Translations under genes and position numbers: made by a program
NCBI GenBank assembly: GCA_965250285.1
Contig: OZ252299.1
Coordinates: 3,712,001 to 3,776,000, forward strand
DNA from: Myxococcota bacterium
GTDB taxonomy: Bacteria > Myxococcota_A > UBA9160 > UBA4427
Length of the DNA: 64,000 nucleotides
Reading direction: 5' to 3'
Notes under the pieces: generated by a model
The model's input: the letters and a program-made list of their open reading frames with translations, nothing else
What the model was told of the DNA's origin: nothing
The model's database searches: none
Shown here: one piece after another, positions 36,876 to 53,288 of the stretch
Position numbering within the stretch: the stretch's first letter is position 1
Layout of the letters: each line of letters starts with the position of its first letter

Positions 36876-38357
36876 ATGACACTCACGCCGCAGTTCGAAG
36901 CGACCTACGCCCGACTCCCCGAGCGGTTCTTTGCTCGCCTGGCCCCGACGCCGGTCGCTGCACCGAGCCTCGTGAGGCTGAACGAGCCGCTGGCACGCGA
37001 GCTCGGCCTCGACCCCGAGCAACTCGCGTCCCCGGACGGCGTAGCGATGCTGGCGGGCAACGCCGTGCCCGAAGGCGCCGAGCCGATCGCGATGGCGTAC
37101 GCGGGGTTCCAGTTCGGCAACTGGACACCCCAGCTCGGCGATGGCCGCGCGATCCTGATCGGCGAGCGCGTCGGGGCCGACGGCGTGCGACGCGACGTCC
37201 AGCTCAAGGGCTCCGGACCGACGCCGTATTCGCGACGCGGCGACGGACGTGCCGCGCTCGGGCCGGTCCTGCGCGAGTACATCGTCAGCGAAGCGATGTG
37301 GGCGCTCGGTGTTCCGACGACCCGCTCGCTCGCGGCGGTCGCCACCGGCGAGTCGATCATGCGCGAACAGCCCGAGCCCGGCGCGGTACTGACGCGCGTG
37401 GCCGAGAGCCACGTGCGGGTCGGCACGTTTCAGCTGCTGGCGAGCCGCAGCGATGAAGAGGGGCTTCGCGCGCTCGCCGACTATGTCATCGAGCGCCACT
37501 TCCCCGAGGCGGCCGAGACCGAGCACCCCTACCTCACGATGTTCGAGACGGTGCTCGACCGGCAGGCCCGGCTCATCGCGCGCTGGCAGAGCATCGGCTT
37601 CATCCATGGCGTGATGAACACCGACAATACATCGGTCGTCGGTGAGACGATCGACTACGGCCCGTGCGCCTTCATGGACACGTTCGGCTACGACACGGTC
37701 TACAGCTCGATCGATCAGATGGGTCGCTACGCGTACGGCAATCAGCCCGCCATCGGCCAATGGAACCTGATGAGCTTCGCGAACGGCCTGCTGCCCGTGC
37801 TGGGCGCCTCGCAGGAGGAAGCAGTCGAACGCGCTCAGGGGGTGCTCGACCTGTACCCAGCCCGCTTCGACGCGGCGTATCGCGCGGGGTTCGACCGCAA
37901 GCTCGGGCTGAGCGGGCGCCGCGAGGGCGACGACGCCCTCGCAGATGACCTGCTCGAGATCATGGCCGCCCAGGGTGCGGACTTCACGCTCACGTTTCGC
38001 GGTCTCGGCGAGCTCGTCGAAGGCGCCGAGGGCCCCGACGAGGTCGTTCGCTCGCTCTTCGACGACCCTGCGGCGTTCGATGCGTGGGCCACGCGTTGGC
38101 GCGCGCGCCTCTCCGACGAGGCACGATCTTCGACCGAGATTCGGCGCGACATGGATGCCGTGAACCCCGTCTACATCCCGCGCAATCATCGCGTCGAAGA
38201 GGCAATTCGCGGCGCCGTCGACCGCGCTGACCTCGGCCCGTTCGAAGATCTCATCGCGGTGCTGTCGAAACCGTACGAGCGACAGCCCGGTCGCGAGCGG
38301 TACGAAGCGCCGCCGCGCCCCGACGAGGTGGTGCACGCGACCTTCTGCGGCACCTGA
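36876..38357 (+). CDS. selO: Protein adenylyltransferase SelO/YdiU
   Basis: [44 protein letters not shown]-terminal TFCGT. Confidence 0.93.
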
Positions 38358-39248: not shown

Positions 39249-41265
39249 GATCGATCCAGATCGGCGACGACCAGGCGCGTTCGCGAATCGTCGCGGGCAC
39301 GCGCGGGTCGGGATCGCGCCCGAGCCGAATCGCATCGTACGTCGACCAGCGGCACGTCGGATTCTGCAAGACGCGAACGTAATAGAAGGCGCCTCGACTC
39401 GGGTCGTAGTCTTCATCCTGCCAGGCGGCCATCAGCTCACCGGCGCCGAGGCCAGCCTGCGGGCGGCAGTTCGCGAGATCGACCGAGGCGCCGTTGTCGG
39501 GGCATCGACGCGTCACGGGGTCGACCTCGAGCCCATCCGAACAGACGACGTCCTGCACCGACTCGTGCGTCTCGCCCGCCTCGTCGATCCACCCCTTCAC
39601 GACCTGAACGCGTTGCAAGGGTGCGCTCATCCAGTCGGCACCGGCCCAGACGAAGAAGGTCGGGCTCTCGTCGCCGACCTGGTTGAGCCGCAAGACACCG
39701 CCCATCGGAACCCCGCCATTGGTGGCGACGGCGACGGGCTCGCTCTCGCCGACGATCGACTCGTCGAAACCGAAGCCCGCGAAGAACCGCAGCGTGATGC
39801 GGGGACCGGATGTGGCGTAGGCTTCGCGGCGCTTCATGCCTTCGAAGATCGAGTCGCGGGTGTTCTCTTCGGCCCAGACCGCAGCGAGCCCGCCCGAACC
39901 GTGATCTTGCAGGATGCCCTGGTGCGGCTTCGCACCCGGCTGCGTGCGCAGCCTCCGCACCGCCGGTGAACCGACGGCGCCGACCTTGCCCGTGAAGTCC
40001 CACTCCTCGGCGTCCCCGGGGTTCGAGTTGTGGGCGTCGGTCGCGGCGACGAAGCCGAAAGCGAGGGGGTTGAAGCCGAGCTCGCGATCGAGCTGCATCC
40101 CGATCTTGAGACCCTGTCGGGCGAACGACGACTCGAAGGCGCAGCCTGAATCCTGCCCCGGCTCGCAGGGCTCGAGCACCTGCTCGAACGCGCACTCTTC
40201 GTCGGTCGCCCCGACACCGAGTGCGCACTCGGAGGCGCCCTTCACCTGATACATCTCGGCCAGAGGTTCATGCCGCTTGCGCAAGCGCCAGGCATCACTG
40301 TCATACGCTCCGCCGTCCCACGTATGGCGGCTGTAGAAGAGACCCCACCCCTTGTTCATGTTGTGCGGAATCGTCAGGAAATCGCAGTCACCGGTGCACG
40401 CCGCCTCGAGCCCGCGCCACAGCTCGACGGCATTGGGGACGTCCTGGGACGAGATCGCACGTTCGGGCAGCGCATCGCCGTTGAAGATCACGTTGCGATG
40501 GTGCTTGCCCGCGCCGTCGAGGACGGGCGAGAACTCGTAGGCCGCAAATGTGGTGAACACGCCGGGCTCGTTGTGCTCGTCGGCGAGCGACTTGTAGCGT
40601 GCCCAATCCGAGCGGCTGTCGCGCACGCATCGCTCCATCCCGCCCTCTCCCCGAGTGCAGATGGGGAACGCGGCCAGCGAACGCGGTGTGCGGGATCGAT
40701 TCTGATACACGCCGGCCGGCACACTCGGATCGGGCGCGAAGTCGCCCCCCCGGCTTTGGCGCTGCATTAGGAAGAAGGCGGTCATCCAACCCGGCGTCTC
40801 CATGAGCCAGCAGTTGACCTGCTCGAGCAGCGTGGTGTCGTCGTCACCGCATCGCGTGCGCAGGCCGAAGCCCTCGGCGTGGTCGGTGATCGCGACGAAG
40901 TCGAGGGGCCGCGAGAGCTGCATGAGCTCCCCGCCCGCGCTGCGTAGGGGCTCGCCCCGCGCGAACGCGTAGGCATCTTCGACGCTGGCCGTCGTGCCGA
41001 AGAGCACGGCGTCGAGGCTCTCGACCGTGTGCACGTGCACCTCGCCCCAATAGACGTTCTTGAGCTCGTCGTAGGGTCGGGGCTCGAGCACCTCGGGTGT
41101 CGGGATCTCGATCCGGCTGTCGTCCTGCAGTGCGAGGTCACCCGGTGCAGTGGCGGGCACGATGGCCTGCGACAGCTCGTACACCGGCCGCAGGACGAAC
41201 CAGCCGATGATCCCCACGACGAGCAGGGTGAGTGCGCCTGCCCCGAGCACGATCCGCTTCAGCAC
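39238..41265 (-). CDS. DUF3604 domain protein (PHP-like metallohydrolase)
   Basis: GTG with SD GGAGG; YWGEVHVHT, PLDFVAITDHAE, HRNVIF, IPHN, ATSGPR, RERAWSSPIW. Confidence 0.88.
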   Translation of the reverse strand: MLKRIVLGAGALTLLVVGIIGWFVLRPVYELSQAIVPATAPGDLALQDDSRIEIPTPEVLEPRPYDELKNVYWGEVHVHTVESLDAVLFGTTASVEDAYAFARGEPLRSAGGELMQLSRPLDFVAITDHAEGFGLRTRCGDDDTTLLEQVNCWLMETPGWMTAFFLMQRQSRGGDFAPDPSVPAGVYQNRSRTPRSLAAFPICTRGEGGMERCVRDSRSDWARYKSLADEHNEPGVFTTFAAYEFSPVLDGAGKHHRNVIFNGDALPERAISSQDVPNAVELWRGLEAACTGDCDFLTIPHNMNKGWGLFYSRHTWDGGAYDSDAWRLRKRHEPLAEMYQVKGASECALGVGATDEECAFEQVLEPCEPGQDSGCAFESSFARQGLKIGMQLDRELGFNPLAFGFVAATDAHNSNPGDAEEWDFTGKVGAVGSPAVRRLRTQPGAKPHQGILQDHGSGGLAAVWAEENTRDSIFEGMKRREAYATSGPRITLRFFAGFGFDESIVGESEPVAVATNGGVPMGGVLRLNQVGDESPTFFVWAGADWMSAPLQRVQVVKGWIDEAGETHESVQDVVCSDGLEVDPVTRRCPDNGASVDLANCRPQAGLGAGELMAAWQDEDYDPSRGAFYYVRVLQNPTCRWSTYDAIRLGRDPDPRVPATIRERAWSSPIWIDPPG

Positions 41266-41416
41266 CGAAGACGCCCTCCTCCGCGACGTCCTCCTCGCCA
41301 GACACGGCTCGGGGCGACGCGAACGGTGACCACGCGATGCGTTCACATATCACATCTGACGATGTCATCGGCGCCGAACTCGCGCCGTCGCTGCTTCGGA
41401 ACGAGGGCGAGGCCCC

Positions 41417-42940
41417 TCACACCTCGCCGGAGTAGGCCTCGCAGAGATTCCAGAGGCGCGCGCGGTCTTCGTCGGATTCACGCGTCCACGGAAGGAGGTG
41501 CGTCTTTCGCGCACGGCGATCGAAGTAGAACCGACCGCTCTCGATCGTTTCGCTGTCGCTCGCCGCGAGCCACACGACCGTATCGGCCCCCTCCGCCGGC
41601 GAGCGCAGGATCGCCTCGGTGACCCGGTGAAAGGTGGGGAGCGACGAGGCGACGGCTGGGGTGTCGGCCCAGCCCGGGTGCATCGACGTCACGGTGACGC
41701 CCTCGGCCTCGAGTCGCTCGGCCCACATCTCGGCCAGCACGACCTGCGCGCGCTTCGTCTCGGCGTAGGCGAGCACGCCGTCGTAGTCGCGCCGCGACCA
41801 ATCGGGATCGTCGAGGTTCAGCGCTCGCGTGTACATCCCCCCGGACGAGACCCAGATCAAGCGACCATCGGACGACGCCGCGAGCCGGTTCTGGAGCATC
41901 CGCGTCAGCAGGTAGGGGCCGATGCAGTGCGTCGCCCAGGTCAGCTCGATGCGTTGCGGCGACAAGACGCGCATGTCGGGCAGCACCCCGGCGTTGTGCA
42001 CCAGCACGTCGACGGGCGACTCAGCCAGCCGCTTGCCCGCTGCACGCACCGAGTCGAGATCGCTCATGTCGACCACCTCGAGATGCACCGCCGCGTTGCC
42101 GGTGCGGGCCCGAATCTCTTCGACGGCGGCGCGCCCTCGCCCCTCGCTCCGGCAGAGCAATACGACCTCGGCACCGAGATCGGCCAGCGCCTCCGCGGTC
42201 GAGCGGCCGATGCCCGAGTTGGCGCCGCTCACGAGACATCGCCGTCCGCTGAGATCGACCTCGAGGTCGTCGGGCTCGAACGTGAGCGAGTGGATGCGAT
42301 AGCCGGTGCGATCGAATGAGCCGACGATCAGCGGGTCGACGACCCGCGAGAGCGCCTCGCCGACGATGCGCTGCGCGCGTGACACCTCGATGCGCTCGTC
42401 GAGGCTGGGTGCATCGCGATCGAGCGCCGCGAGAATGTCCTCCGGGCGGGCGTGGTCACCCGCGACCTCGCTTCGATGGCTGAACGTCAGGCGCCCACCG
42501 GGTTGGATCACGAAGGCGCCGCCGAGCTGCCAGGGGTCGCCCTGGACGCCTTCCTGGCGATGCCCCGCGGCCAGCGCGCGCCCGGCATTCACGGCGAGGC
42601 GCGGTGACAGCACCTCGACGCGGCCGCGCCGCAGCCCCGCGGCGCGATAGGCGCGCAGCTCGGGGTCGACCAGGAGCGGGCCCTCGAGTGCGAAATCCTC
42701 ACGAAACGCCTCGGCGAAGGAGCGAGCGCCGTTGCCGACGATGACCAGCTCGGCGCCTTGTTTTTGGATCTCGGGAAGGGCGTCGCGCAACTGCGCGACC
42801 TGCTCGCGGCAGAACAGTCAGCCGAAGTGGCGCAAGAAGACCAGGACCGCCGGGCGGTCACGCCAGTACGAGCCCAGCGCGAAGCGGTCGCCCGCCGCGT
42901 CTTCGAGCTCGATCGGCGTGAGTTGGCGCACGATGTCCAC
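41417..42940 (-). CDS. Selenoprotein: Prx-like (AhpC/TSA-2, SelL/SelU-related) UxxC domain fused to DHRS12-like SDR
   Basis: GTG 42940 with SD GGAG; in-frame TGA 42818-42820 in VFLRHFG-U-LFCRE; then LVDPE, QLGGAFV; SDR SGANSGIG, HNAG, YAETK, MHPGWADT. 507 aa. Confidence 0.85.
42782..42812 (-). promoter_or_regulatory. Candidate bacterial SECIS element
   Basis: Just 3' of UGA: CUGC(C)GCGA-GCAGG-UCGCGCAG hairpin; alternative GUCGCGC-AGUU-GCGCGAC. Confidence 0.5.
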
Positions 42941-43065
42941 GGTCGACTCCAGTCGGTGAACCAGGCAGATGCCGGCCGCGGCCCGAAGGTCACGCTCCGA
43001 CCCCCGGGCCGGCGCTGAGGATCGTCTCGAGCGCCGGGCCGCGGCGACGCGGCGAAGCAGCCGCT

Positions 43066-43239
43066 CTACGCCACGCGTCGCAGCCTTCGCGATCGCTCGC
43101 CGCGGCTGTGCTGCGCGCGGACCCGCACTTTGGCCGTCTGCGTGCGCGCCAGGTAGCGCTCACGCAGAAACACGTAGGCGCCGCCGAAGGCGATGAACGA
43201 GATCGCCACCCCGAACGTGAGGATCTGCATGTCATTCAT
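43066..43239 (-). CDS. Small single-TM protein (57 aa)
   Basis: SD GGGAG, overlaps upstream stop; ILTFGVAISFIAFGGAYVFLRE. Confidence 0.6.
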   Translation of the reverse strand: MNDMQILTFGVAISFIAFGGAYVFLRERYLARTQTAKVRVRAQHSRGERSRRLRRVA

Positions 43240-43468
43240 GGTCATGACTCCCGATGAGCAGGTTGGCGGCCGAGAGGATCGACGGGACCCAGAGTCCGAC
43301 GAAGATCCCCTCCTCGCGCTGACCAGCGAAGAAGAGGTAGACGGAGGCGGCGAGCGACAGGCCCGCAGCAAGAAAGAAGAGCGCCTTTGGCGTGGTGACC
43401 CCGAGCGCCGAATCGATCGCGGCATCCTCACGGTCTTCGCGCCGGACGTGCTGCACCTTCACCTCCAT
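43232..43468 (-). CDS. Small 2-TM protein (78 aa)
   Basis: SD GGAGGT; FFLAAGLSLAASVYLFF...EGIFVGLWVPSILS. Confidence 0.7.
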   Translation of the reverse strand: MEVKVQHVRREDREDAAIDSALGVTTPKALFFLAAGLSLAASVYLFFAGQREEGIFVGLWVPSILSAANLLIGSHDHE

Positions 43469-43589
43469 GACTGACCTCCGCGCTGATCCGGGCGATGAGG
43501 ACCCGGCCTGGGCCACGCAGCGCGGTCTCTCGCCGCTTCGCGTCTCCCAATGGCTTCTCAGATGCACCCTCTGATCATGAAGTATCGTT

Positions 43590-43613
43590 TTTGTTTAATA
43601 TTACTTGTTCAAA
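43590..43613. promoter_or_regulatory. AT-rich operator-like site A
   Basis: TTTGTTTAATATTACTTGTTCAAA; 17/24 match to reverse complement of 49036-49059. Confidence 0.55.
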
Positions 43614-43653
43614 ATTGATATTCGGGGCATGTTCTCCGTGGGAGCACGCCACG

Positions 43654-43827
43654 ATGAGTGAGGCGAACGAGACCAATCGGCGGGAATGGGCGGCGCGAGC
43701 GTTGGGGGTTGCGGTGGGCCTTTTCGCCGCGGCCGTCGCCTGGTCGACCCTTCGCTGGCCAGCCCCTGCGATCGCGTTCGCGCTGGGCTTCGGGGCCTAT
43801 CTCGCGGCGAGCCCGAAGGAACACTGA
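43654..43827 (+). CDS. Small 2-TM protein (57 aa)
   Basis: SD GGGAG; ALGVAVGLFAAAVAW...AIAFALGFGAYLA. Confidence 0.5.
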   Translation: MSEANETNRREWAARALGVAVGLFAAAVAWSTLRWPAPAIAFALGFGAYLAASPKEH

Positions 43828-43884
43828 GCGTCGCGGCCAGGTGATCCGCGCGCGCTGGTCGGCGATCCGCCATTCGGCGTAGGC

Positions 43885-45369
43885 TCAGACCTGGCCGCGC
43901 GTGAGCCCGCGCAACAATCGATCAGCCGTCTCGAGCGTCTCAGCCCGGTCCGCCAACCTGTCGAGGCTTCGAACGGCCATCGACGTACGGGGGTAGCGAC
44001 TCAACCGGTCGCGATGTCGGTCGACGAAGCGCCAGTAGAGCGCCGTCAGCGGGCACGCCGCGTCGCCGACGCGCCGCTTCGGATCGTACGCGCAGTCGCC
44101 GCAGTGATCGCTCATGCGGTTCATGTACGCGCCACCCGCCGCATACGGCTTGGACGCCATCTGTCCGCCGTCGGCGTGGAGCCCCATGCCGATCACGTTC
44201 GGCACCATCACCCACTCGGCCGCGTCGACGAAGCTGCGCTCCATCCACGCGAGCAGATCCAGCGGACGCACGTCGGCCAGAAGCCCGAGATTCGCGAGCA
44301 CCATCAAGCGCTCGATGTGATGCGCCCAGCCCCGCTCATGCACGTTGCCGACGGCGGCGCGCACGCAGGCCATCGATGTTCGAGCCGGATCTTCGAAGCT
44401 CGGCAGCAGCTTGCGCCGCGCACCCAGTGCGTTGAGGCTTCGGTAGTCGGGCATCCAGAGCCAGTAGACGCCCCAGACGTACTCACGCCAGCCCGCGATC
44501 TGACGAACGAAGCCCTCGGCGGATGCGATCGGGACGCGCCCTTCGCGGTAGGCGCGCTCGGCCGCCTCACAGACCTCTGCGGGATGCAGCAGCCCGATGT
44601 TGAGCGCCGGGCTCAGGAGCGCGTGGGCCAGATGCCACGACCGCGTCGTCATCGCATCCTGATGCGGGCCGAACTGCGGCAGGCAGTCGTCGACGAAGTG
44701 ACGCAGTCGCTTGAGCGCCGCGCGGCGCGAAGTGGGCCACCAGCCTTCGGGATCGGCTCCAAAGCCTGCTTGCCCGATCTCATCGAGCACCTCGCGATCG
44801 ATCGCGTCGAGCTGTGAGCGTACAGGCGCCGGCCAGACGCCCTCCTTCGGCGGGGGCTTTCGGTTCTCGGGGTCGAAGTTCCAGCGCCCGCCCGCCGGCT
44901 CGTCGCCATCCATCAAGTACCCGAGTCGGGCGCGCTGCCAGCGGTAGAAGTTCTCCATGCGCAGCGCGCCGCGGTCGTTGGCCCAGGCGCGAAATGCGTC
45001 GGGATGACACAGGAACTGGTCGTTGGCCACGAGCTCGACGCCCCAGTGCTCGAGCCGTTCGGCCGCGCCGAAGCGGCTCGGCTCCATCGCGACCACGCGC
45101 TCGGGAGCGTGCTGCGCCACATGCGCTTCGAAGCCGACGCGCATGCTGGTCGCCTTGCGATAGTCGACTTCGAAGCCCGCCCCTTCGAGCTCCGAAGCGA
45201 ATCGGCGCATCGCAGTCATGTAGAGATGAAGTCTCTGACGGTGCCAACGGTGGGCGCGAAGGCGGGCCTCGCTCTCGACGAGCAGCACGCGTGTATCGGC
45301 CGGGGTGCAATCGCGCAGCGAGGCGATCTGGCGGTTCAGCTGATCTCCCAGGATCCAGACGGTCTGCAT
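43885..45369 (-). CDS. Cryptochrome/photolyase, FeS-BCP (prokaryotic 6-4 photolyase-like)
   Basis: WILGDQL, RMENFYR, GGRWNFD, EGFVRQIAGWREY, HHIERLM, KPYAAGGAY; four Fe-S Cys (MAC, HCGDC, ACP). Confidence 0.92.
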   Translation of the reverse strand: MQTVWILGDQLNRQIASLRDCTPADTRVLLVESEARLRAHRWHRQRLHLYMTAMRRFASELEGAGFEVDYRKATSMRVGFEAHVAQHAPERVVAMEPSRFGAAERLEHWGVELVANDQFLCHPDAFRAWANDRGALRMENFYRWQRARLGYLMDGDEPAGGRWNFDPENRKPPPKEGVWPAPVRSQLDAIDREVLDEIGQAGFGADPEGWWPTSRRAALKRLRHFVDDCLPQFGPHQDAMTTRSWHLAHALLSPALNIGLLHPAEVCEAAERAYREGRVPIASAEGFVRQIAGWREYVWGVYWLWMPDYRSLNALGARRKLLPSFEDPARTSMACVRAAVGNVHERGWAHHIERLMVLANLGLLADVRPLDLLAWMERSFVDAAEWVMVPNVIGMGLHADGGQMASKPYAAGGAYMNRMSDHCGDCAYDPKRRVGDAACPLTALYWRFVDRHRDRLSRYPRTSMAVRSLDRLADRAETLETADRLLRGLTRGQV

Positions 45370-45438
45370 GGTTGCGGCCCCTCGTTGAAGTCGTTCGAGC
45401 GCACGCACGCCCGATCCGGAGCCGCGGCTCGCCCCGCT

Positions 45439-46215
45439 TCAGCGCTCGTCGGCGTCCCGCGACAGCTTGAGCTGCCCGAGCGCCTTGCGACGCAGGTAGG
45501 CGTACTGCTCGAGCAGCGGCAGCCCTTTCGGACAGACGTCGTGACAGCCCATCAGCCCCACGCAGCCGAACACACCCTGGTCGCTCGCGACGACGTCGAA
45601 CCAGTCGTCCTCGTCTCGGGCGTCCCGGGGATCGCGCATGAATCGCGCAATCCGATTCAGGCCGGCCGCTCCGACGAAGTCGTCGCGCACGTTCGCAACC
45701 CCGCAGCCGGCGATGCAGCAGCCGCACTCGATGCAGCGCTCACCCTCGTAGATCGCCTGGGCCAGCTCATCGTCCATTCGTTCTTCGACGGCCTCGGGAT
45801 CGAACGGCGCCTTCTCGTGCACCCAGGCACCGACGCGCTCGGCCATGTTTCGAAACCACGTGCCGGTATCCACCGAGAGATCGCCGACCATCTTGAAGAC
45901 AGGCAGCGGCTGCAGCCGAATCGTGTCGGGCAGGTCGCGGGTGAGCGTCTTGCAGGCGAGCGCCGGCCGACCGTTCACGACCATTCCGCACGAGCCACAG
46001 ATGGCCGACCGGCACGCAAAGTCGAACTGCAGGCTCGGGTCGAGTTCTTCACGGATCTCGTTGAGCGCCGTGTACAGGGTCATGTACGGCTTCTCGACCA
46101 GCTCGAACGTGTCGAAGCGCGGCTTCGAGTCGGGGGCTTCCGGGTTCAGTCGGAAGACTTCGAACACGAGGGTGCGGCCGACGTCGATCGAGACTTCTTG
46201 CACGATCATGGACAT
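45439..46215 (-). CDS. frdB: Fumarate reductase iron-sulfur subunit
   Basis: CRSAICGSC..C, CIECGCCIAGC, CVGLMGCHDVCPK; GDLSVDTG. Confidence 0.9.
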   Translation of the reverse strand: MSMIVQEVSIDVGRTLVFEVFRLNPEAPDSKPRFDTFELVEKPYMTLYTALNEIREELDPSLQFDFACRSAICGSCGMVVNGRPALACKTLTRDLPDTIRLQPLPVFKMVGDLSVDTGTWFRNMAERVGAWVHEKAPFDPEAVEERMDDELAQAIYEGERCIECGCCIAGCGVANVRDDFVGAAGLNRIARFMRDPRDARDEDDWFDVVASDQGVFGCVGLMGCHDVCPKGLPLLEQYAYLRRKALGQLKLSRDADER

Positions 46216-46232
46216 TCGATCACTCCTGCACG

Positions 46233-48200
46233 CTACTCGCTGCGCTGCGGCGGCGACGTGTGATCCGCCGAGTCTTGCCAGCGCCCCCACCGCATCCGGC
46301 TGCCCAGCGGTTCGGAAGGGTCAGGTGCACCGCCGGCGCCCCAGGCAGCGCCGACGGCGCGGTTGTAGTCCTCGATCGAGGACTCCATCCCGACGGTGAG
46401 ACTCTTGCCGTAGCCCCGGTCGCCCGGCGGCAGATCGATCAAGCCCACCGGCTCGTACGAGAGGCGGGCCGCGCCTTCGTCGTGGGACCAGTGGGCGAGT
46501 GTGCGGTTGAGCCAGCGATCGTCGTCCCGTGCCGGATGGTCGGTTCGGTAGTGGGCACCGCGGCACTCCGTACGAGCGAGGGCGCCCTGCGCGGTGATCA
46601 GCGCGAGGCGCGCCATGCCCTCGAGGCGCAGCGCGAACGTGAGCTCGGGGTTCGCGCCGGGCGCCTTCGAACGCAGGGCCGCACGGCCGACCAGCGCGAG
46701 CTGCCCTTCGATCTCCTTCGTCGCCTGCTCGAGCTCTTCACCGTTGCGAAAGACGCCGACCTTGTGATTGAGCGTCTCGGCGATCGCGTCGCGAATCGCG
46801 TACACGGTCGGGCCATCGGCGGATCGCTCGAGCCAATCCACGAGCCGGCGGTCGACGTCGTGGTGGAACGCATGCGCGACGGCCGTGTCGAGGGCGAGCG
46901 ACGTCTGCGACGCGAACTCGGCCACGTGGCGCCCGACGAAGCGTCCGGCGACCACCGTCTCGGCGAGGCTGTTGCCGCCGAGCCGATTGAAGCCGTGCAG
47001 ATCCCAGCAGGCCGCCTCACCGACGGCGAAGAGACCGCGCAGGCCGTAGGCCTCGCCGTGCTTGTTGACGCGCACACCGCCCATCGAATAGTGCTGGATC
47101 GGCCGCACCGGGATCGGCTCGCGCGCCGGATCGAGGCCGTTGAAGTCGCGACAGATGTCCCAGACCTCGCGCAGCTTCGTTCGCAGATGCTGCTCACCGA
47201 GATGTCGAAGATCGAGCCACAGGTGCTGGCCCGCGTCGCTCTCGACGCCACGCCCATCCTTGATCTCGGCCATCATGTGGCGCGAAACGACGTCGCGGCT
47301 CGCCAGCTCCTGCTTCTCGGGCTCGGCACGCACCATGAAGCGCTCGCCCTGGGTGTTGAGCAGATACCCCCCGTCCCCGCGACAGCCTTCGGTCACGAGA
47401 ATGCCGCTCGGGACGAGCCCGGTCGGGTGAAACTGCACAGCCTCCATGTTGCCGAGCGGAACGACACCGGTATCGAGCGCGAGCGAGGCGCCAGTGCCCT
47501 CGTTGATCGTTGCGTTGGTCGTGTAGCGACCGTAGATGCGGCCGTGGCCCCCGGTCGCGACGACTGTCGCCTTGGCGACGAAGGAGGTCAGCGCGCCGGT
47601 GCGCAGGCATCGGGTCACGGCGCCCCAGCAGCGGCCAGCGTCGTGGATCAGCGAGAGCGCCTCGATGCGATCGATCACGCGAATGCCGAGGCGCACGACC
47701 TCGCCATCGACGGCGTACAGAACGGCGTGGCCCGTGCCCGCCGACGCGTAGCAGGCGCGCCACTTCGCGGTCCCGCCGAAGTTGCGGTGCATGATCAGGC
47801 CGGCCTTCTCGTCGGGCTCGTCGATCTCGACCTTCTGCCCCTTGACGAAGTAGGTGTTTCGGCCGGGGCGCACGCGCGTCCAGGGCACGCCCCAATGCGC
47901 GAGCTCGCGCACGGCGACGGGCGCCTCTTCACTGAAGATCCAGGCGACCTCCTGGTCGGCGCCCCAGTCGGATCCACGCACGGTGTCGAGGAAGTGCAGC
48001 GTCGGGTCGTCGCCCTCGGCCTTCACGCAGTTGCCGAGTGCCGCCTGCATCCCGCCTTGGGCGGCGCAGCTGTGGCTGCGGCGCGGCGGCACGAGTGAGA
48101 GCAGCGTGACGTCGTGCCCCGCGACTGCGGCCTCGATGGCGCAACGTTCACCGGCCAGCCCGCCGCCGATCACGAGGACGTCGGTCGATCGCAGGTCCAT
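46233..48200 (-). CDS. frdA: Fumarate reductase flavoprotein subunit
   Basis: DVLVIGGGLAG, RRSHSCAAQGG (covalent FAD His), QFHPT, TEGCRGDGG, RDVVSR, HYSMGG, NRLGGNSL, PPGDRGYG. Confidence 0.92.
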   Translation of the reverse strand: MDLRSTDVLVIGGGLAGERCAIEAAVAGHDVTLLSLVPPRRSHSCAAQGGMQAALGNCVKAEGDDPTLHFLDTVRGSDWGADQEVAWIFSEEAPVAVRELAHWGVPWTRVRPGRNTYFVKGQKVEIDEPDEKAGLIMHRNFGGTAKWRACYASAGTGHAVLYAVDGEVVRLGIRVIDRIEALSLIHDAGRCWGAVTRCLRTGALTSFVAKATVVATGGHGRIYGRYTTNATINEGTGASLALDTGVVPLGNMEAVQFHPTGLVPSGILVTEGCRGDGGYLLNTQGERFMVRAEPEKQELASRDVVSRHMMAEIKDGRGVESDAGQHLWLDLRHLGEQHLRTKLREVWDICRDFNGLDPAREPIPVRPIQHYSMGGVRVNKHGEAYGLRGLFAVGEAACWDLHGFNRLGGNSLAETVVAGRFVGRHVAEFASQTSLALDTAVAHAFHHDVDRRLVDWLERSADGPTVYAIRDAIAETLNHKVGVFRNGEELEQATKEIEGQLALVGRAALRSKAPGANPELTFALRLEGMARLALITAQGALARTECRGAHYRTDHPARDDDRWLNRTLAHWSHDEGAARLSYEPVGLIDLPPGDRGYGKSLTVGMESSIEDYNRAVGAAWGAGGAPDPSEPLGSRMRWGRWQDSADHTSPPQRSE

Positions 48201-48205
48201 CGCAG

Positions 48206-48997
48206 CTACCCCTTCAGCAGGAAGGCGAGCGGCGGATCGGCCCACCCGGCCAGCACGACGAGCGTGACGGCGCCGAGGCCGAGAAAGCCGACGAGCAGCA
48301 CGCGCTCGATTCGGAGCAGGGTGCGACGACCCAGCCGGGCCCCGATGCCCCACTTCACGGCAAAGCGATAGAGCCCGACGCTCGCATGGAATTCGACGCA
48401 GAGCAGAAGTACGGCGTAGACGACCCAGAGCCCTGCCCCCACCCGGGCCTGCGACGTCGCCGCCTCGATCCCCGTGCGCTCGCCGAACAGCGGCGTCAGC
48501 ACGTCGACGGCGACCAGCACCAGATGGAAGCTGCCCAACACGAGCAGCGTCATGCCCGTCCAGACCTGCCAGAGCCAGAGAGACGACTCGACATGCGGCG
48601 TGTAGCCCGTGCCGCGTGCCTTCAGCTCGTCGCCGAGAGCGCGCAGCCGCCTTCGCTCGCGAATCTGGGCGGGGATCTTGCGGCTCGCGAGGGCGGCGTG
48701 CGTGAGAAAGAGCGCCGAGATCGCAAACACGGTTGGCTGCGCGATGTAGACGTGCTCGAGCCCCGACGCGAGCCAGTCGAAGCCGCGCGCGCCCGTGAGG
48801 ATCGAGCCCACCAGCACCATGTGGCCCCACATGAAGAAGGCCAGTCCCACCCCCGAGAGGCCACTGGCCAGCTCGTACACGAGCTGGCGCTGGGCCTCCC
48901 GGCGGAGAGACGTTGCCCCCGCCCGCCGCTGCCAGGGGAGAGGGGATGCGCGGCGGGCGGGGGGTGAAGTGCGGTCCTGGGGGGTGGCAGCTGCCAT
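48206..48997 (-). CDS. frdC: Fumarate reductase diheme cytochrome b anchor (5-TM, type B)
   Basis: SGLSG..FFMWGHM, LTHAALA.RKIP, WLWQVWTG..FHL, VEFHASVGLYRFAVKWG (four His ligands). Confidence 0.88.
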   Translation of the reverse strand: MAAATPQDRTSPPARRASPLPWQRRAGATSLRREAQRQLVYELASGLSGVGLAFFMWGHMVLVGSILTGARGFDWLASGLEHVYIAQPTVFAISALFLTHAALASRKIPAQIRERRRLRALGDELKARGTGYTPHVESSLWLWQVWTGMTLLVLGSFHLVLVAVDVLTPLFGERTGIEAATSQARVGAGLWVVYAVLLLCVEFHASVGLYRFAVKWGIGARLGRRTLLRIERVLLVGFLGLGAVTLVVLAGWADPPLAFLLKG

Positions 48998-49003
48998 GAC
49001 TGG

Positions 49004-49079
49004 AACGTATGGCACCCGCATCCCAATGTAAACTCTTTGAATACATTTTATTTGACAAAGAGTGTTCTTTCGATAGCTT
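49004..49079. promoter_or_regulatory. Divergent sigma70-like promoters with operator-like site B
   Basis: Minus: TTTACA(49032-27)-N17-TACGTT(49009-04), 6 nt before frdC ATG. Plus: TTGACA(49052-57)-N16-TAGCTT. IR ACTCTTTG-N16-CAAAGAGT (49032-49063). Confidence 0.65.
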
Positions 49080-49237
49080 CCCGTTCGTCGAGATATAGGA
49101 CCGCGCGGCTCACCGGCCCGTCGGCTCGCGCACAAATCCTCGAACCGGGCAGGAACAGCGATCGTGTCCACGTTCTAGTCGGCAAAAGATGTACCGTCGG
49201 CGAACCCGTCGACGCGAGAAAGAGGAGGTCGACGGCG

Positions 49238-50272
49238 ATGACCCCGCAGCCCCAGGGACCGTCCAATGGAGGGGGAGCACACGTGGCCCAGCAGGATCCC
49301 GATCAGTCGCTGTATCGCGTCGGCACGGCGGCGCAGCTGAGCGGCGTGCCGCCGGCCACCATCCGTGCCTGGGAGCGGCGGTACGGTGCCGTCGACCCGA
49401 AGCGATCCGAGACCGGGCGGCGACTCTACGACGATGAAGACGTCGCGCGGCTGCAGTTGATGAAGGCGCTGACGGATGTCGGCGATCCGATCAGTGCGAT
49501 CGCCAACCTCGATTATGCCGAGCTCCGCGATCGACTCGATCGCCACGCTGCCCGGCCCCAGCCCATCGACGGCGATTCGACGATGGCGACGCGGGTTGCC
49601 CTACTCGACCCCGAGATCGAGGAGCAGATCCGCGCGAACCCCGGCGACTTCTCGCCGCTCGAGGTCGCCGGGGCGGATGGCTCGATCGACTCGTTCATCG
49701 AGCGGCTGCCGGGCATGCAGGCCGACGCGCTCGTCATGCACATCGACCGACTCGGCCCCGACCCGGTGACCGCCGTCGATCAGGCGCTCAAGGCGGCCGG
49801 CGCGAACGTGGCGGTCGTCCTCTACCACTTTGCCGCTGCGCCCACCCTGCGGCGACTCGCCGATCGAGGCGTGCGGCTGCTCATGCTGCCGACGCGCGTC
49901 TCGTCGCTTCGACGCACGATCCGCGACTTCATCGACATCCGCCGGGCGACGGCGGTCCGCGACGCCCTCATCGCGATCGAGTCGCGCGCACCGGATGACC
50001 GCGCGTCGGCGGCCGCCGAGCGACGCTTCACCGATGCCCAGCTGGCCCGGCTGCAAGAGATCACCAGCTCGGTGGAGTGCGAGTGTCCGAGCAACCTGTC
50101 GGGTGTGATCAAGAGCCTGGTCGCGTTCGAGCGCTACAGCAGCCAGTGCGTGAGCGACAGCCCCCGAGACGCCGAGCTGCACCGGGCGCTCGAACGCGGC
50201 ACCGGCCACGCCCGCGCGCTCATGGAAGAGCTGCTCATGCGCGTCTGCGAGCACGACGGGCTGACGATCTGA
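49238..50272 (+). CDS. MerR family regulator with Cys-rich C-terminal domain
   Basis: SD GAGGAGG (alternative GTG 49283); YRVGTAAQLSGV..TIRAWERRYG..P.RS..GRRLY; C-terminal CECP..L...FERYS.QC...LH. Confidence 0.9.
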   Translation: MTPQPQGPSNGGGAHVAQQDPDQSLYRVGTAAQLSGVPPATIRAWERRYGAVDPKRSETGRRLYDDEDVARLQLMKALTDVGDPISAIANLDYAELRDRLDRHAARPQPIDGDSTMATRVALLDPEIEEQIRANPGDFSPLEVAGADGSIDSFIERLPGMQADALVMHIDRLGPDPVTAVDQALKAAGANVAVVLYHFAAAPTLRRLADRGVRLLMLPTRVSSLRRTIRDFIDIRRATAVRDALIAIESRAPDDRASAAAERRFTDAQLARLQEITSSVECECPSNLSGVIKSLVAFERYSSQCVSDSPRDAELHRALERGTGHARALMEELLMRVCEHDGLTI

Positions 50273-50300
50273 CCCCCGCGCTGCCTGCGAGCCCCCTGCC

Positions 50301-50747
50301 GTGACCACCGCCCTGCTGCTCGTCCACTTTGCGTGCACCTGGTACCTCGTCGGTCTCTGCTGGCTCGTGCAGCGCGTGCAGTACCCGCTGATGAGCGCCG
50401 TCGGCGAGGAAGCCTTCACCGAGTACGAGCAGGGTCACGTCGCGCGTATTACGCCCGTCGTCGCACCGCCCATGCTGCTCGAGGCGGCGAGCGCGATGGC
50501 GCTGGTGATCGCGGCGCCCGCCCTGCTGACCTCCCCGCTCTTCTTGGCCACGGGCGTGCTGCTCGCCGTGATCTGGATCTCGACCTTCGCAGTGCAGGTG
50601 CCGCTGCATACCCGGTTGAGCGAGCGATTCGACGCCGCCGCGCACCGACGACTGGTGCGCACCAACTGGATCCGGACGGTGAGCTGGTCCCTTCGCGGGC
50701 TGCTGCTGCTCCCGATCGTCTTCTCGTGGATCCGCGGGACGGTGTGA
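50301..50747 (+). CDS. Conserved hypothetical membrane protein (4 TM)
   Basis: GLCWLVQRVQYPL, VVAPPMLLE, STFAVQVPLH, NWIRT. Confidence 0.75.
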   Translation: MTTALLLVHFACTWYLVGLCWLVQRVQYPLMSAVGEEAFTEYEQGHVARITPVVAPPMLLEAASAMALVIAAPALLTSPLFLATGVLLAVIWISTFAVQVPLHTRLSERFDAAAHRRLVRTNWIRTVSWSLRGLLLLPIVFSWIRGTV

Positions 50748-50795
50748 GCTGAAACGCCTTCAGGCGATGCGCAGGACGGCGTCGCCCGTGCGTGC

Positions 50796-51935
50796 TCACG
50801 GCGTAGCGGCCGGTTCCTCGCGCGGCGCCTCGGCTTCCGTACGGCGCAGCACCACGGTCCAGTACCAGAGCTCACAGGCGTAGCGGGTCGTGTGACGCCG
50901 GTAGAGCGCCTCGAAACGGCGGTAGAAGGCATCGCTGAGTCGCTGCACCTCCGTTTCGTTCTCGGCCGACGGCTCGAAGAGCTGCGTCCGCAACGTCGAG
51001 TCAGCGAAGGCCCGCGTGTAGCCCGTGTAGCGCTCGGCATACAGATCGGGGCGATCGACGAGATCCGCGAAGACGTCGCCCGGGTTCACCGCCGCGGGCT
51101 CGACCGCGACGTGCTCGATCTCGAACGCCCGCGCGAGCGCCGCATCTTCGACGAGCGGCCGTCGCACCTCGGCTTCGGTCATGAACCAGAGGCCGAAGAC
51201 GAACGCGTCGAGCACGTCCGGGCGCAACAGGCCTTCGTCGACCATCTCGCGTGCGACCCGCTGCAGAGCGCGGTAGATCCCCCGCCCGGAACACGCCGAC
51301 CCGTTCGCCTCGTTCGCATCGGGGACCGAGCCGAGGGACGAGACCAGCAGCGCACCGCCAGGGCGAAGCTCACTGGCCCGGCACTTCAAGAAGCGCCGCC
51401 AGTCACGCTCGGCGAGTGCGGCGAGCGCATCTCTCGGTGCGCCGTCGAGATCAGCGAACCAGACTGCGTCGGGCGCCTCGACGTGCGGCGCCGCGCTCAG
51501 CCAGTGGGCCGCCGCGAACGAAGTGCCCAGAACGATGGACCCCGGCGCAGCACATACGTCGTAGAAGCTGCCGATCGACGCCTCGGTGCGCACAGGGCCG
51601 GGACCAGCGCCGTACCCCTGCTCACCGGTCGCGCGCCGAAAGAGGGCGTTCCAATCGTTCCCCGGCTGATCCACGTGGCGCACCGTGATCGGCGCTTCGG
51701 CGAAGCGCGCGCGCAGCGCCTGCACCGCTGGAACGACGGCCTGCACGGCGGTGGGCCCCGGGCCACAGCCGTAGTCGGCGATCTCGATCTGGGCCGCGCC
51801 CACGTCCACCCGAGCCGCGAGCGCTCGGATCCGCGCTTCGTGAAATCGGATCAGCTCGAACTGCGCCCGCGAGTTCTCGCCGTACTCGACCATGCCCTCG
51901 GTCGAAGGGGGCGCGGCTCGCTCCGTTTCCTGCAT
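50796..51935 (-). CDS. SABATH-family SAM-dependent carboxyl methyltransferase
   Basis: IADYGCGPG, DQPGNDWNALF, GSFY, AAHWLS, DWRRFLKCRASELRPGG. Confidence 0.85.
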   Translation of the reverse strand: MQETERAAPPSTEGMVEYGENSRAQFELIRFHEARIRALAARVDVGAAQIEIADYGCGPGPTAVQAVVPAVQALRARFAEAPITVRHVDQPGNDWNALFRRATGEQGYGAGPGPVRTEASIGSFYDVCAAPGSIVLGTSFAAAHWLSAAPHVEAPDAVWFADLDGAPRDALAALAERDWRRFLKCRASELRPGGALLVSSLGSVPDANEANGSACSGRGIYRALQRVAREMVDEGLLRPDVLDAFVFGLWFMTEAEVRRPLVEDAALARAFEIEHVAVEPAAVNPGDVFADLVDRPDLYAERYTGYTRAFADSTLRTQLFEPSAENETEVQRLSDAFYRRFEALYRRHTTRYACELWYWTVVLRRTEAEAPREEPAATP

Positions 51936-52265
51936 GTGTTCCTCGCGTCGGCTCACTCGACGAATCGCCGTCTTCCGCCCGGACGGCCGACTTCACGTCG
52001 ATCAAGATACCAGGACGGCTCGCCTCCGAGCGGATCGCGAGGGCGTGAGGAGAGGTAGCGGAGCGCTCCGCGACTCGGAGGTCGCGGGGTCTCGCTCGTC
52101 GCAGGGCCCGGCTCGCCGGCTGCTCGCGACGCACACCCGATCCGGCCCGTTCGGGCCGTCTCCGAGTGCACGCTCGGCGCGAGATCGGGCGTAACCTCGA
52201 GCGCGCCAGGGCGTATCGAGATCTGCGACCCGCGATGTCGCAACGCCTCGCTGAGGAGGGACTCG

Positions 52266-53288
52266 ATGAGACCGACAGCATCCTTCGCACCGACGGTGCC
52301 CCTGCCTTCCTTCGTCGATCGCCGCCGACGCGCAGCGCTGTGCATGATGCTGGGCGTGATCCTCGCGGCGATCCAGCCACAACCGACCCACGCAGACGTG
52401 CCCCCCGAGCTCGGCCGCGTCGACTGGCAGCGCGATCTCGACGCCGCGCTCGCCGAGTCGGCCCGCTCGGGGCGGCCGGTCTTCGTGCTCTTTCAGGAGG
52501 TCCCGGGCTGCGCCACGTGTGTCTCGTTCGGACGCAACGTGCTCGATCACCCGCTGCTTGCCGAAGCGATCGAGACCGCGTTCGTTCCGATGCTCGTGTA
52601 CAACAATCGCGGCGGCCGCGATCGTGCGTGGCTCGCGCAATTCGGTGAGCCCGCCTGGAACAATCCGGTCGTGCGACTGCTCGATGCGAACGCCCGCGAT
52701 CTGGTGCCGCGTCGGTCGGGCGTCTGGACCCCCGAAGCCATCGGCGCACGCATGATGCAGGCCCTGCAGGCGGCAGGGCAGCCCGTACCCGACTATCTGT
52801 CTCTCGCCGTCGAAGAGCTCGACGCGCGGCCGGCGCGCCGGGCCGTGTTCGCCATGCACTGCTTCTGGGTCGGTGAAGCGTGTCTGGGTGAGATCCCGGG
52901 CGTGCTGTCGAGCCGTGCGGGCTTTCTCGCGGGTCGAGAGGTCGTCGAGCTCGAGTTCGACGAGCGCGTCGTCTCGTACCCGGCGCTGCTCGCAGCGGCC
53001 CGTGCGCAGGGTTGCGCGCGGGCCGTCTACGCTCTGACGCCGAGCGACCTCGAGGTGGCACGCAAGGTCTTCGGCGACGCCGCGAGTCTGGCCGAGACGA
53101 TTCCGCGCAGCGCACCCGACTCGGATCAGAAGCGTTCGCTGCGTGGCACACCCTTCGCGCAGCTCGAGCTCACGCCCCGCCAGCAGATGCGCGTGAACGC
53201 CGACCTCGCAGCGGGCCGATCGCCGGTGCGCCACCTGAGCCCACGCCAGCGCCGTGCGCTGTCCGCCGCGAGCGGCCGAAACTCCTGA
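52266..53288 (+). CDS. Exported thioredoxin-like (VPGC/VPGU type, Cys form) protein fused to MsrA-like domain
   Basis: ELGRVDW, LFQEVPGCATC, EPAWNNPVVR; second domain MHCFWVGE...GREVVE. Confidence 0.8.
   Translation: MRPTASFAPTVPLPSFVDRRRRAALCMMLGVILAAIQPQPTHADVPPELGRVDWQRDLDAALAESARSGRPVFVLFQEVPGCATCVSFGRNVLDHPLLAEAIETAFVPMLVYNNRGGRDRAWLAQFGEPAWNNPVVRLLDANARDLVPRRSGVWTPEAIGARMMQALQAAGQPVPDYLSLAVEELDARPARRAVFAMHCFWVGEACLGEIPGVLSSRAGFLAGREVVELEFDERVVSYPALLAAARAQGCARAVYALTPSDLEVARKVFGDAASLAETIPRSAPDSDQKRSLRGTPFAQLELTPRQQMRVNADLAAGRSPVRHLSPRQRRALSAASGRNS

Follow-up and report, generated by a model that had tools for sequence, protein, structure and literature searches.

A diheme quinol:fumarate reductase operon linked to a photolyase and a class III LitR-like regulator in Myxococcota: a candidate light-regulated respiratory module

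Regulators of the LitR/CarH group control regulons that, in the literature consulted, cover pigments, DNA repair, folate and lipids. CarH operators consist of TnnACA repeats of 11 bp that lie across the -35 box (PMC9304148). In the dark, class II LitR represses phrB, cryB, folE and ufaM, and class III LitR, which is of the Burkholderia type and has no known sensing domain, undergoes a spectral change with light (PMC9758184). Genes of respiratory complex II have also been seen to rise in blue or violet light. In Campylobacter jejuni, violet-blue light lowers the oxidase genes and raises frd, an effect the authors credit to RacR (PMC9426514), and in Vibrio cholerae complex II gives rise to reactive oxygen species (ROS) under blue light and the sdh genes rise (PMC5241685). 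In both cases these are housekeeping operons within a global response (ChrR/MerR in V. cholerae, RacRS in C. jejuni), whereas here we describe a dedicated extra copy of complex II that lies physically within a light island. It is found in a stretch of 64,000 nucleotides from a Myxococcota bacterium (contig OZ252299.1, positions 3,712,001 to 3,776,000; hereafter the window, in which all coordinates are given unless marked otherwise), where an operon for a diheme quinol:fumarate reductase (frdCAB) is followed by a photolyase gene and faces a divergent gene for a MerR-family, LitR-like regulator. Every part of this arrangement comes from a known family, and it is the combination that appears to be new. 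Within the open-licence literature, taken without supplements, none of the papers found connects LitR/CarH or a photolyase with a fumarate reductase operon, while the regulon tables of two J. Bacteriol. LitR papers could bear on this novelty; the combination is likewise not described in the available parts of PMC6175931, PMC11417400, PMC6739363 and bioRxiv 10.64898/2026.07.10.737566.

The open reading frames frdC (48997-48206), frdA (48200-46233), frdB (46215-45439) and the photolyase (45369-43885) follow one another on the minus strand with gaps of 5, 17 and 69 nt, and the regulator gene (49238-50272, plus strand) runs divergently to frdC. Ahead of frdC lies a sigma-70-like promoter, TTTACA-N17-TACGTT (49004-49032, minus strand), in which TTTACA starts at 49032 and TACGTT follows 17 nt further. 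Because 6 nt separate the end of its -10 box from the frdC ATG, the frdC transcript is probably leaderless, and a -35/-10/ATG pattern suggesting the same is present in 13 of the 25 operon-bearing genomes surveyed below; a generic promoter scan missed this site and gave a different one at 49073-49045. Gene order, strands, gaps, promoter and divergent regulator are all as described in an earlier, model-made reading of the DNA letters (the sequence-only reading). Neither a promoter and terminator scan nor our motif scan placed a terminator or promoter in the 69-nt gap between frdB and the photolyase, which folds at -33 kcal/mol but has no U-run, and the fold is not decisive. Positions 41000-53000 are matched by one public contig, unbroken and with zero differences, that is possibly the source of the same assembly.

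The encoded enzyme is, by its sequence, a Wolinella/Desulfovibrio-type diheme quinol:fumarate reductase whose haem, quinol-site and catalytic residues are intact. FrdA matches PRK08626 with 913 bits (above the equivalog cut-off of 663) and the Desulfovibrio gigas structure (PDB ID 5XMJ_A) with an E value of 4e-226, and six FAD and dicarboxylate-site motifs are found in 23/23 sequences from the order; FrdB, whose Cys positions were examined, matches PRK13552 with 373 bits (above the equivalog cut-off of 264). FrdC belongs to PF01127, and its best NCBIfam match, PRK13553 at 117.6 bits, falls below the equivalog cut-off of 187, which we take to mark a divergent anchor subfamily for which PRK13553 is still the best match. 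A profile of 24 FrdC sequences matched only the D. gigas (5XMJ_C) and W. succinogenes (1QLB_C) anchors in the PDB, and FrdC is a single anchor with five hydrophobic segments and four haem His residues (diheme cytochrome b, type B). In the alignment to 1QLB its H60, H101, H159, H205, E82 and E203 (numbered as in our protein P0001, which has one extra residue ahead of the Met) correspond to Wolinella H44, H93, H143, H182, E66 and E180, and they are kept in 118, 118, 119, 119, 119 and 119 of 119 homologues, respectively; the single-anchor, five-helix enzyme with four His and an E-pathway Glu proposed in the sequence-only reading is thus borne out. In Wolinella, the E-pathway Glu makes the enzyme electroneutral. 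One FrdC (P0051, locus L020, genome G159) has haem ligand H101 replaced by Gln, and at one locus (L111 9164-11133, G135) frdA was recovered in three tblastn pieces, either a broken gene or a sequencing error. The window's operon shares with FrdCAB of Wolinella (1QLB, 2BS2) and D. gigas (5XMJ) the gene order, the five-helix diheme anchor with four His, the E66 and E180 equivalents, and the FAD and dicarboxylate motifs. Unlike theirs, the host here is oxidase-rich, has two further complex II operons and no DcuA/B, and the operon stands under a predicted LitR operator away from anaerobic respiration genes, with a FrdC below the PRK13553 cut-off.

The photolyase that follows (PF04244; 3ZXS, E 6e-117; 4DJA, E 1e-107) is homologous to PhrB and CryB, has all four cluster cysteines (335, 423, 426 and 439), and on this basis is classed as an FeS-BCP, that is, a prokaryotic 6-4 photolyase of the CryB type; it is the only tblastn match of its kind in the genome. 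The divergent regulator has a MerR helix-turn-helix (HTH; PF13411) and only MerR Pfam matches. Its B12-binding domain is absent and it scores 34.7 against the CarH NCBIfam, where the cut-off is 400, so that a B12-type CarH is ruled out. Behind the HTH are a receiver-like middle domain and a C-terminal domain with a CECP-x20-C motif. In a predicted model (pLDDT 83.5) the HTH is followed by a receiver-like domain of five strands and a C-terminal part made of helices, with CarH and receiver domains as its fold matches. Four Cys are present in total, of which three (C281, C283 and C304) are invariant, together with H315, across 23 aligned sequences. Over its full length it is 32% identical to a Ralstonia MerR protein (E 5e-47) that heads a folE, cfa and cryptochrome/photolyase cluster, and since this is the gene context of class III LitR, we call the regulator class III LitR-like and, judging by its domains, B12-independent. 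Where the sequence-only reading had a Cys-rich, CarH/LitR-like MerR protein, the LitR likeness thus stands, whereas the protein has just four Cys and is not a B12-type CarH. Like the class III LitR of Burkholderia multivorans, it combines a MerR HTH with the lack of a B12 domain (PMC9758184). It also has full-length homology, and CECP-x20-C in common, with MerR genes of Burkholderiaceae located ahead of folE, cfa and a cryptochrome gene. The difference is the co-occurring FrdCAB seen here; the B. multivorans class III LitR regulon is not known to hold a complex II gene.

To see how general the linkage is we surveyed 187 genomes of the order. This FrdA clade is present in 25 of them, and a distant form in one other (G033). 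The neighbourhood was the fetched stretch, 20 kb or less on contigs of varying length, and the core light markers were LitR, photolyase families, BLUF, folE, RudS, DUF2256, fasciclin, cfa and DUF1365, identified from Pfam or from a typical N-terminal sequence together with plasmid annotation. Such markers lie near the operon in 18 of the 25 genomes (17/24 without the window's own), as against 0/20 other complex II loci from 19 of the same genomes and 0/66 further loci of the same frdC family, mostly from Gammaproteobacteria. The linkage of operon and light genes, for which the sequence-only reading had proposed a survey of relatives, thus recurs, and it is not by chance. A LitR gene is adjacent to the operon or one small gene off in 11/25, and may be divergent, in tandem upstream of it, or downstream. 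Only in two genomes (the window's own, G000, and G161) does the photolyase come directly after frdB, which rules out a conserved frdB-photolyase tandem. Gene order is shuffled, with about ten different contexts upstream of the operon; the conserved unit is the promoter motif plus the island. These islands hold CPD photolyase, FeS-BCP, BLUF, folE and RudS; SOD, Nei glycosylase, HiPIP and an F420-dependent reductase are encoded there as well. The HiPIP gene, found in 7/26 order loci (e.g. L014 9517-9867 and L022 14289-14621) and often adjoining frdB or frdC, is possibly an electron-transfer partner in the regulon. The sister FrdCAB clade (Woeseiaceae and other Gammaproteobacteria; ~65-72% FrdA identity) has an operon of the same make-up, but differs in its recurring neighbours, which are multihaem cytochromes, Mtr genes (MtrB), NrfD and ApbE, in its lack of light markers at those 66 loci, and in the promoter motif described next (3/63); a LitR with the CECP motif (CECP LitR) occurs in 2/5 of its genomes checked, at loci apart from the operon.

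A predicted LitR/CarH-type operator lies at 49027-49058, where two inverted half-sites, separated by an AT-rich spacer of 8 nt, are followed, 11 nt on, by a further half-site that is the -35 box of the frdC promoter. The palindromic half-site model behind this prediction was learned from nine G000 intergenic regions beside light-marker homologues, with the frd island excluded, and six of the nine gave strong sites. With it the frdC promoter scores 23.3 bits and ranks 5th of 3029 intergenic regions (8th by half-sites alone), as compared to ranks of 104 and 1914 for the promoters of the other two complex II operons. The window holds three sites of at least 15 bits, one of which, a second predicted operator at 43591-43612 ahead of the next minus-strand operon, has 21.6 bits and rank 7/3029. 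Across genomes, in fixed 400-nt windows upstream of frdC (two order regions are cut by contig ends, and three short outside regions were dropped), the motif reaches at least 15 bits in 14/23 order regions versus 3/63 outside regions and 0/19 housekeeping ones, and at least 18 bits in 11/23, 0/63 and 0/19, respectively. Where frdC trails another gene in tandem, the site often shifts to the head of that operon, and counting sites near frdC or at the head of the co-directional upstream gene, the motif is found in 19/25 genomes. It is kept at frdC in genomes with an unrelated gene upstream (G023, G161) and in those with LitR on another contig (G044, G068, G135). In most of the 13 genomes with the leaderless pattern, a TnnACA-like half-site sits on or beside the -35 box, and by motif score a predicted operator of TnnACA type overlaps the -35 box of the frdC promoter. 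The TnnACA half-sites, 11-bp period and -35 overlap are features in common with CarH/CarA operators (PMC9304148), and the targets of the class II LitR proteins PplR and PmlR2 (phrB, cryB, folE, ufaM) are the same kinds of genes (PMC9758184). The arrangement differs, as two inverted half-sites 8-10 nt apart are accompanied here by one direct repeat, compared to TGTACA-N12-TGTACA in P. mendocina, and this locus has no carotenoid genes.

Co-occurrence follows the same pattern. CECP LitR is found in 33/187 order genomes, comprising 20/25 with the operon versus 13/162 without, and within genus g14 in 11/11 versus 2/20; FeS-BCP is found in 20/25 versus 20/162. In an FrdA tree of 87 rows, from which G138 and G135 (split genes) were omitted, the 23 order rows group with a further row from Myxococcota in a single branch (SH-aLRT 96) that lies among gammaproteobacterial rows and within which families are mixed. 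The simplest reading of this tree would be one acquisition and one recruitment, followed by rearrangement and lateral spread. The linkage is so far confined to one uncultured order. Among 401 genomes of the phylum, a strict first look gave three outside the order with a distant frdC and no light marker near it. A set of 80 metagenome LitR-type loci, many of them short and most not of the CECP type, gave no frdCAB. The class to which G525 belongs gave 21 CECP-LitR loci in 400 genomes, and the 20 of these that were fetched contain no complex II gene. Separately, a Caballeronia sp. SBC1 plasmid (NZ_CP049159.1; L132 13536-22998) has CECP LitR-folE-SDR, then a partial sdhA and a sigma-70 family gene; a full sdhCDAB-hemH and the partial sdhA lie within ~9 kb of this LitR, with pyp upstream and IS elements around. 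From its gene content, it is possibly an independent case of complex II in a light island.

The genome carrying the operon is one 6.25-Mb contig of 68.6% G+C. Two further complex II operons are present, of which one most resembles E. coli frdABCD and the other is an sdhCAB of the b558 type. The sequence-only reading had asked whether there is a separate complex II, and the operon is indeed not the only one of the cell. No photosynthetic reaction centre was found in the genome, which rules out a phototrophic host. It has three haem-copper oxidases and a menB above the cut-off, and searches of it gave no ubiG or mqnA-type match above cut-off and no bd oxidase; by its gene content the host appears to make menaquinone only and to lack ubiquinone synthesis. 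Other light genes are scattered over the chromosome, including two CPD photolyases, a folE-BLUF pair, fasciclins and a second LitR with a cfa cluster, which brings the LitR paralogues to two. High motif scores outside the training set are also seen at genome positions 176530, 799709-800154, 2480419-2480697 and 5908415-5908661, the first of which precedes a fasciclin-repeat gene near the second folE.

Taken together, these comparisons suggest that the operon very probably belongs to a LitR-type regulon. The proposal of the sequence-only reading that a complex II had been recruited into a photo-stress regulon thus gains from the recurring neighbourhood, the co-occurrence and the shared motif on the frdC promoter, and loses in that the tandem is not conserved and the regulator is not CarH. 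Given membership, the signal is probably light or a photo-oxidant, and given both, we lean towards an electron drain rather than a replacement enzyme. As a whole, the mechanism that we tentatively favour, short of calling it probable, is that LitR represses the operon in the dark, light or a photo-oxidant releases it, and electrons then flow from menaquinol to fumarate as an outlet independent of oxygen. A LitR protein, which could be either of the two paralogues, would bind the motif and block RNA polymerase in the dark, by analogy to CarH and class II LitR, until light or light-made oxidants lift the repression. One transcript would span frdCAB and the photolyase, since no terminator or promoter was matched in the 69-nt gap. 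Because the Wolinella quinol-site and E-pathway glutamates are retained and the host is apparently menaquinone-only, the enzyme would likely run in the reductase direction, from menaquinol to fumarate. In doing so it could keep the quinone pool oxidised when light harms the aerobic chain, perhaps with less flavin autoxidation than the E. coli-type Frd of the same cell; a diheme Frd of Bacteroides yields no ROS whereas the E. coli Frd does, a difference traced to the Fe-S subunit (PMC5210497). On a broader and more speculative account, which we think somewhat less likely than not, non-phototrophic Myxococcota would have taken a gammaproteobacterial anaerobic fumarate reductase and put it under the control of a photosensor independent of B12; in light, respiration would then turn from oxygen to fumarate and so act as a valve against photodamage.

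Several points weigh against this mechanism. It rests on comparative genomics, from which both the light induction and the electron-drain role are inferred. The marker proteins were drawn partly from the tested loci themselves; no core marker was present in 7/25 genomes (four of these on short or cut contigs), and no motif site was found near frdC in G022, G116, G124 and G125, nor on two cut contigs. The motif is loose and AT-rich, with the AT-rich spacer alone ranking the frdC promoter 20th. The order genomes are incomplete and related, so that Fisher values for the co-occurrence overstate it, and as the linked enzymes form a single branch, the 25 genomes amount to one event. LitR is present without the operon in 13 genomes, and the operon is therefore dispensable. 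The ROS-free precedent is the Bacteroides enzyme, where the effect comes from the Fe-S subunit and not the haem (PMC5210497), and the third, b558-type complex II of the genome could itself fill a ROS-safe role. Finally, the type B Frd works in both directions in C. jejuni (PMC9426514), and no DcuA/B antiporter was found in the genome to account for the supply of fumarate.

The last two of these points would equally fit a light-induced, LitR-controlled enzyme that serves as a spare succinate dehydrogenase, replacing photo-damaged housekeeping complex II and keeping the TCA cycle turning. The same regulon evidence applies to it, V. cholerae raises sdh in blue light (PMC5241685), and sdhCDAB-hemH of the Caballeronia plasmid lies ~4-8 kb from a CECP-LitR/folE operon. 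We nevertheless consider it rather unlikely, as the E-pathway Glu is kept in 119/119 homologues and the host seems to be without ubiquinone synthesis. With an electroneutral enzyme, as in Wolinella, uphill succinate oxidation by menaquinone would go without the drive of a proton gradient. The regulon could also be real and answer to another signal, the Cys3 site sensing redox, oxygen or nitrosative stress, with photolyases included since light and oxygen vary together at sediment surfaces. The three invariant Cys and invariant His of the C-terminal domain could bind metal, SOD, Nei glycosylase, HiPIP and the F420-dependent reductase are among the island genes, and nitrosative stress induces a photolyase of V. 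cholerae (PMC11976125). However, CPD photolyase, FeS-BCP, BLUF, folE and RudS are known light-induced genes, and the spectral change of class III LitR depends on light (PMC9758184), which together make a non-light signal improbable in our view.

It is more doubtful again that the operon is a passenger, which entered a LitR island once and travels along with its own AT-rich promoter, constitutive or under another regulator. The single origin on the FrdA tree is what this predicts, the mixing of families on it fits lateral spread of islands, and with so loose a motif the frdC/MerR intergenic site could, in this genome, serve MerR autoregulation alone. Against this, about ten upstream contexts occur, and the motif is kept even with an unrelated upstream gene (G023, G161) or with LitR on another contig (G044, G068, G135), half-sites alone rank the promoter 8/3029, and the half-site is the frdC -35 box and not the MerR start ~200 nt off. 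A biosynthetic side role, in which the enzyme serves, for example, as electron acceptor in the making of porphyrin, folate or furan fatty acids, or binds spare haem, seems very unlikely to us: folE, cfa-type methylases and wax ester synthases do neighbour the operon or carry the motif, and hemH is within the Caballeronia sdh operon, but no haem-pathway gene is among the annotated recurring neighbours and the dicarboxylate site is unchanged.

If LitR-controlled electron drainage were true, it would mark the first case of a respiratory complex wired firmly into a LitR/CarH regulon, and would give a handle on light sensing by class III LitR through a Cys3-His site. The presence of a dedicated complex II there would mean that non-phototrophs remodel their respiratory chain in light, and the separate hints from transcriptomes (sdh in V. 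cholerae, frd in C. jejuni) would become a defined circuit with a predicted operator. The pair of ~70% identical enzymes, one in an anaerobic-respiration and one in a light-island context, could moreover reveal what adapts complex II to oxidative conditions, and the compact promoter and regulator are testable in a laboratory host, with no need to culture the organism.

Further genes of the island and its flanks are also of note. Starting 28 nt after the regulator gene is one for a 148-aa membrane protein with no Pfam family (50301-50747, plus strand), homologues of which are in 7/26 order loci as well as L013 and L016, and which recurs in the LitR islands of the order. Two small membrane proteins of 78 and 59 aa, also with no Pfam family (43066-43468, minus strand), recur in LitR islands too; a second copy of the pair, at genome positions 4593701-4594091, is beside a CPD photolyase, and the pair sits behind predicted LitR operators twice in G000 and in several relatives. 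An AhpC/TSA-like and SDR fusion (41417-42940, minus strand) has an in-frame TGA within a U-x-x-C motif, identical in L220, L221 and L222, and since the genome encodes selA and tRNA-Sec, this fusion of the LitR island is likely a selenoprotein. Converging on the MerR operon is a SABATH-type SAM-dependent carboxyl methyltransferase (PF03492; 50796-51935, minus strand), of a family known mostly from plants, and the island is flanked by two redox-related genes, a thioredoxin-like/MsrA-like fusion (52266-53288, plus strand) and SelO (36876-38357, plus strand); all three were unseen in the related loci. In a relative (L234 2773-7350, G008), a second CECP LitR has as neighbours a beta-carotene 15,15'-dioxygenase gene and a gene of the flavin amine-oxidase family, which suggests a retinal cluster.

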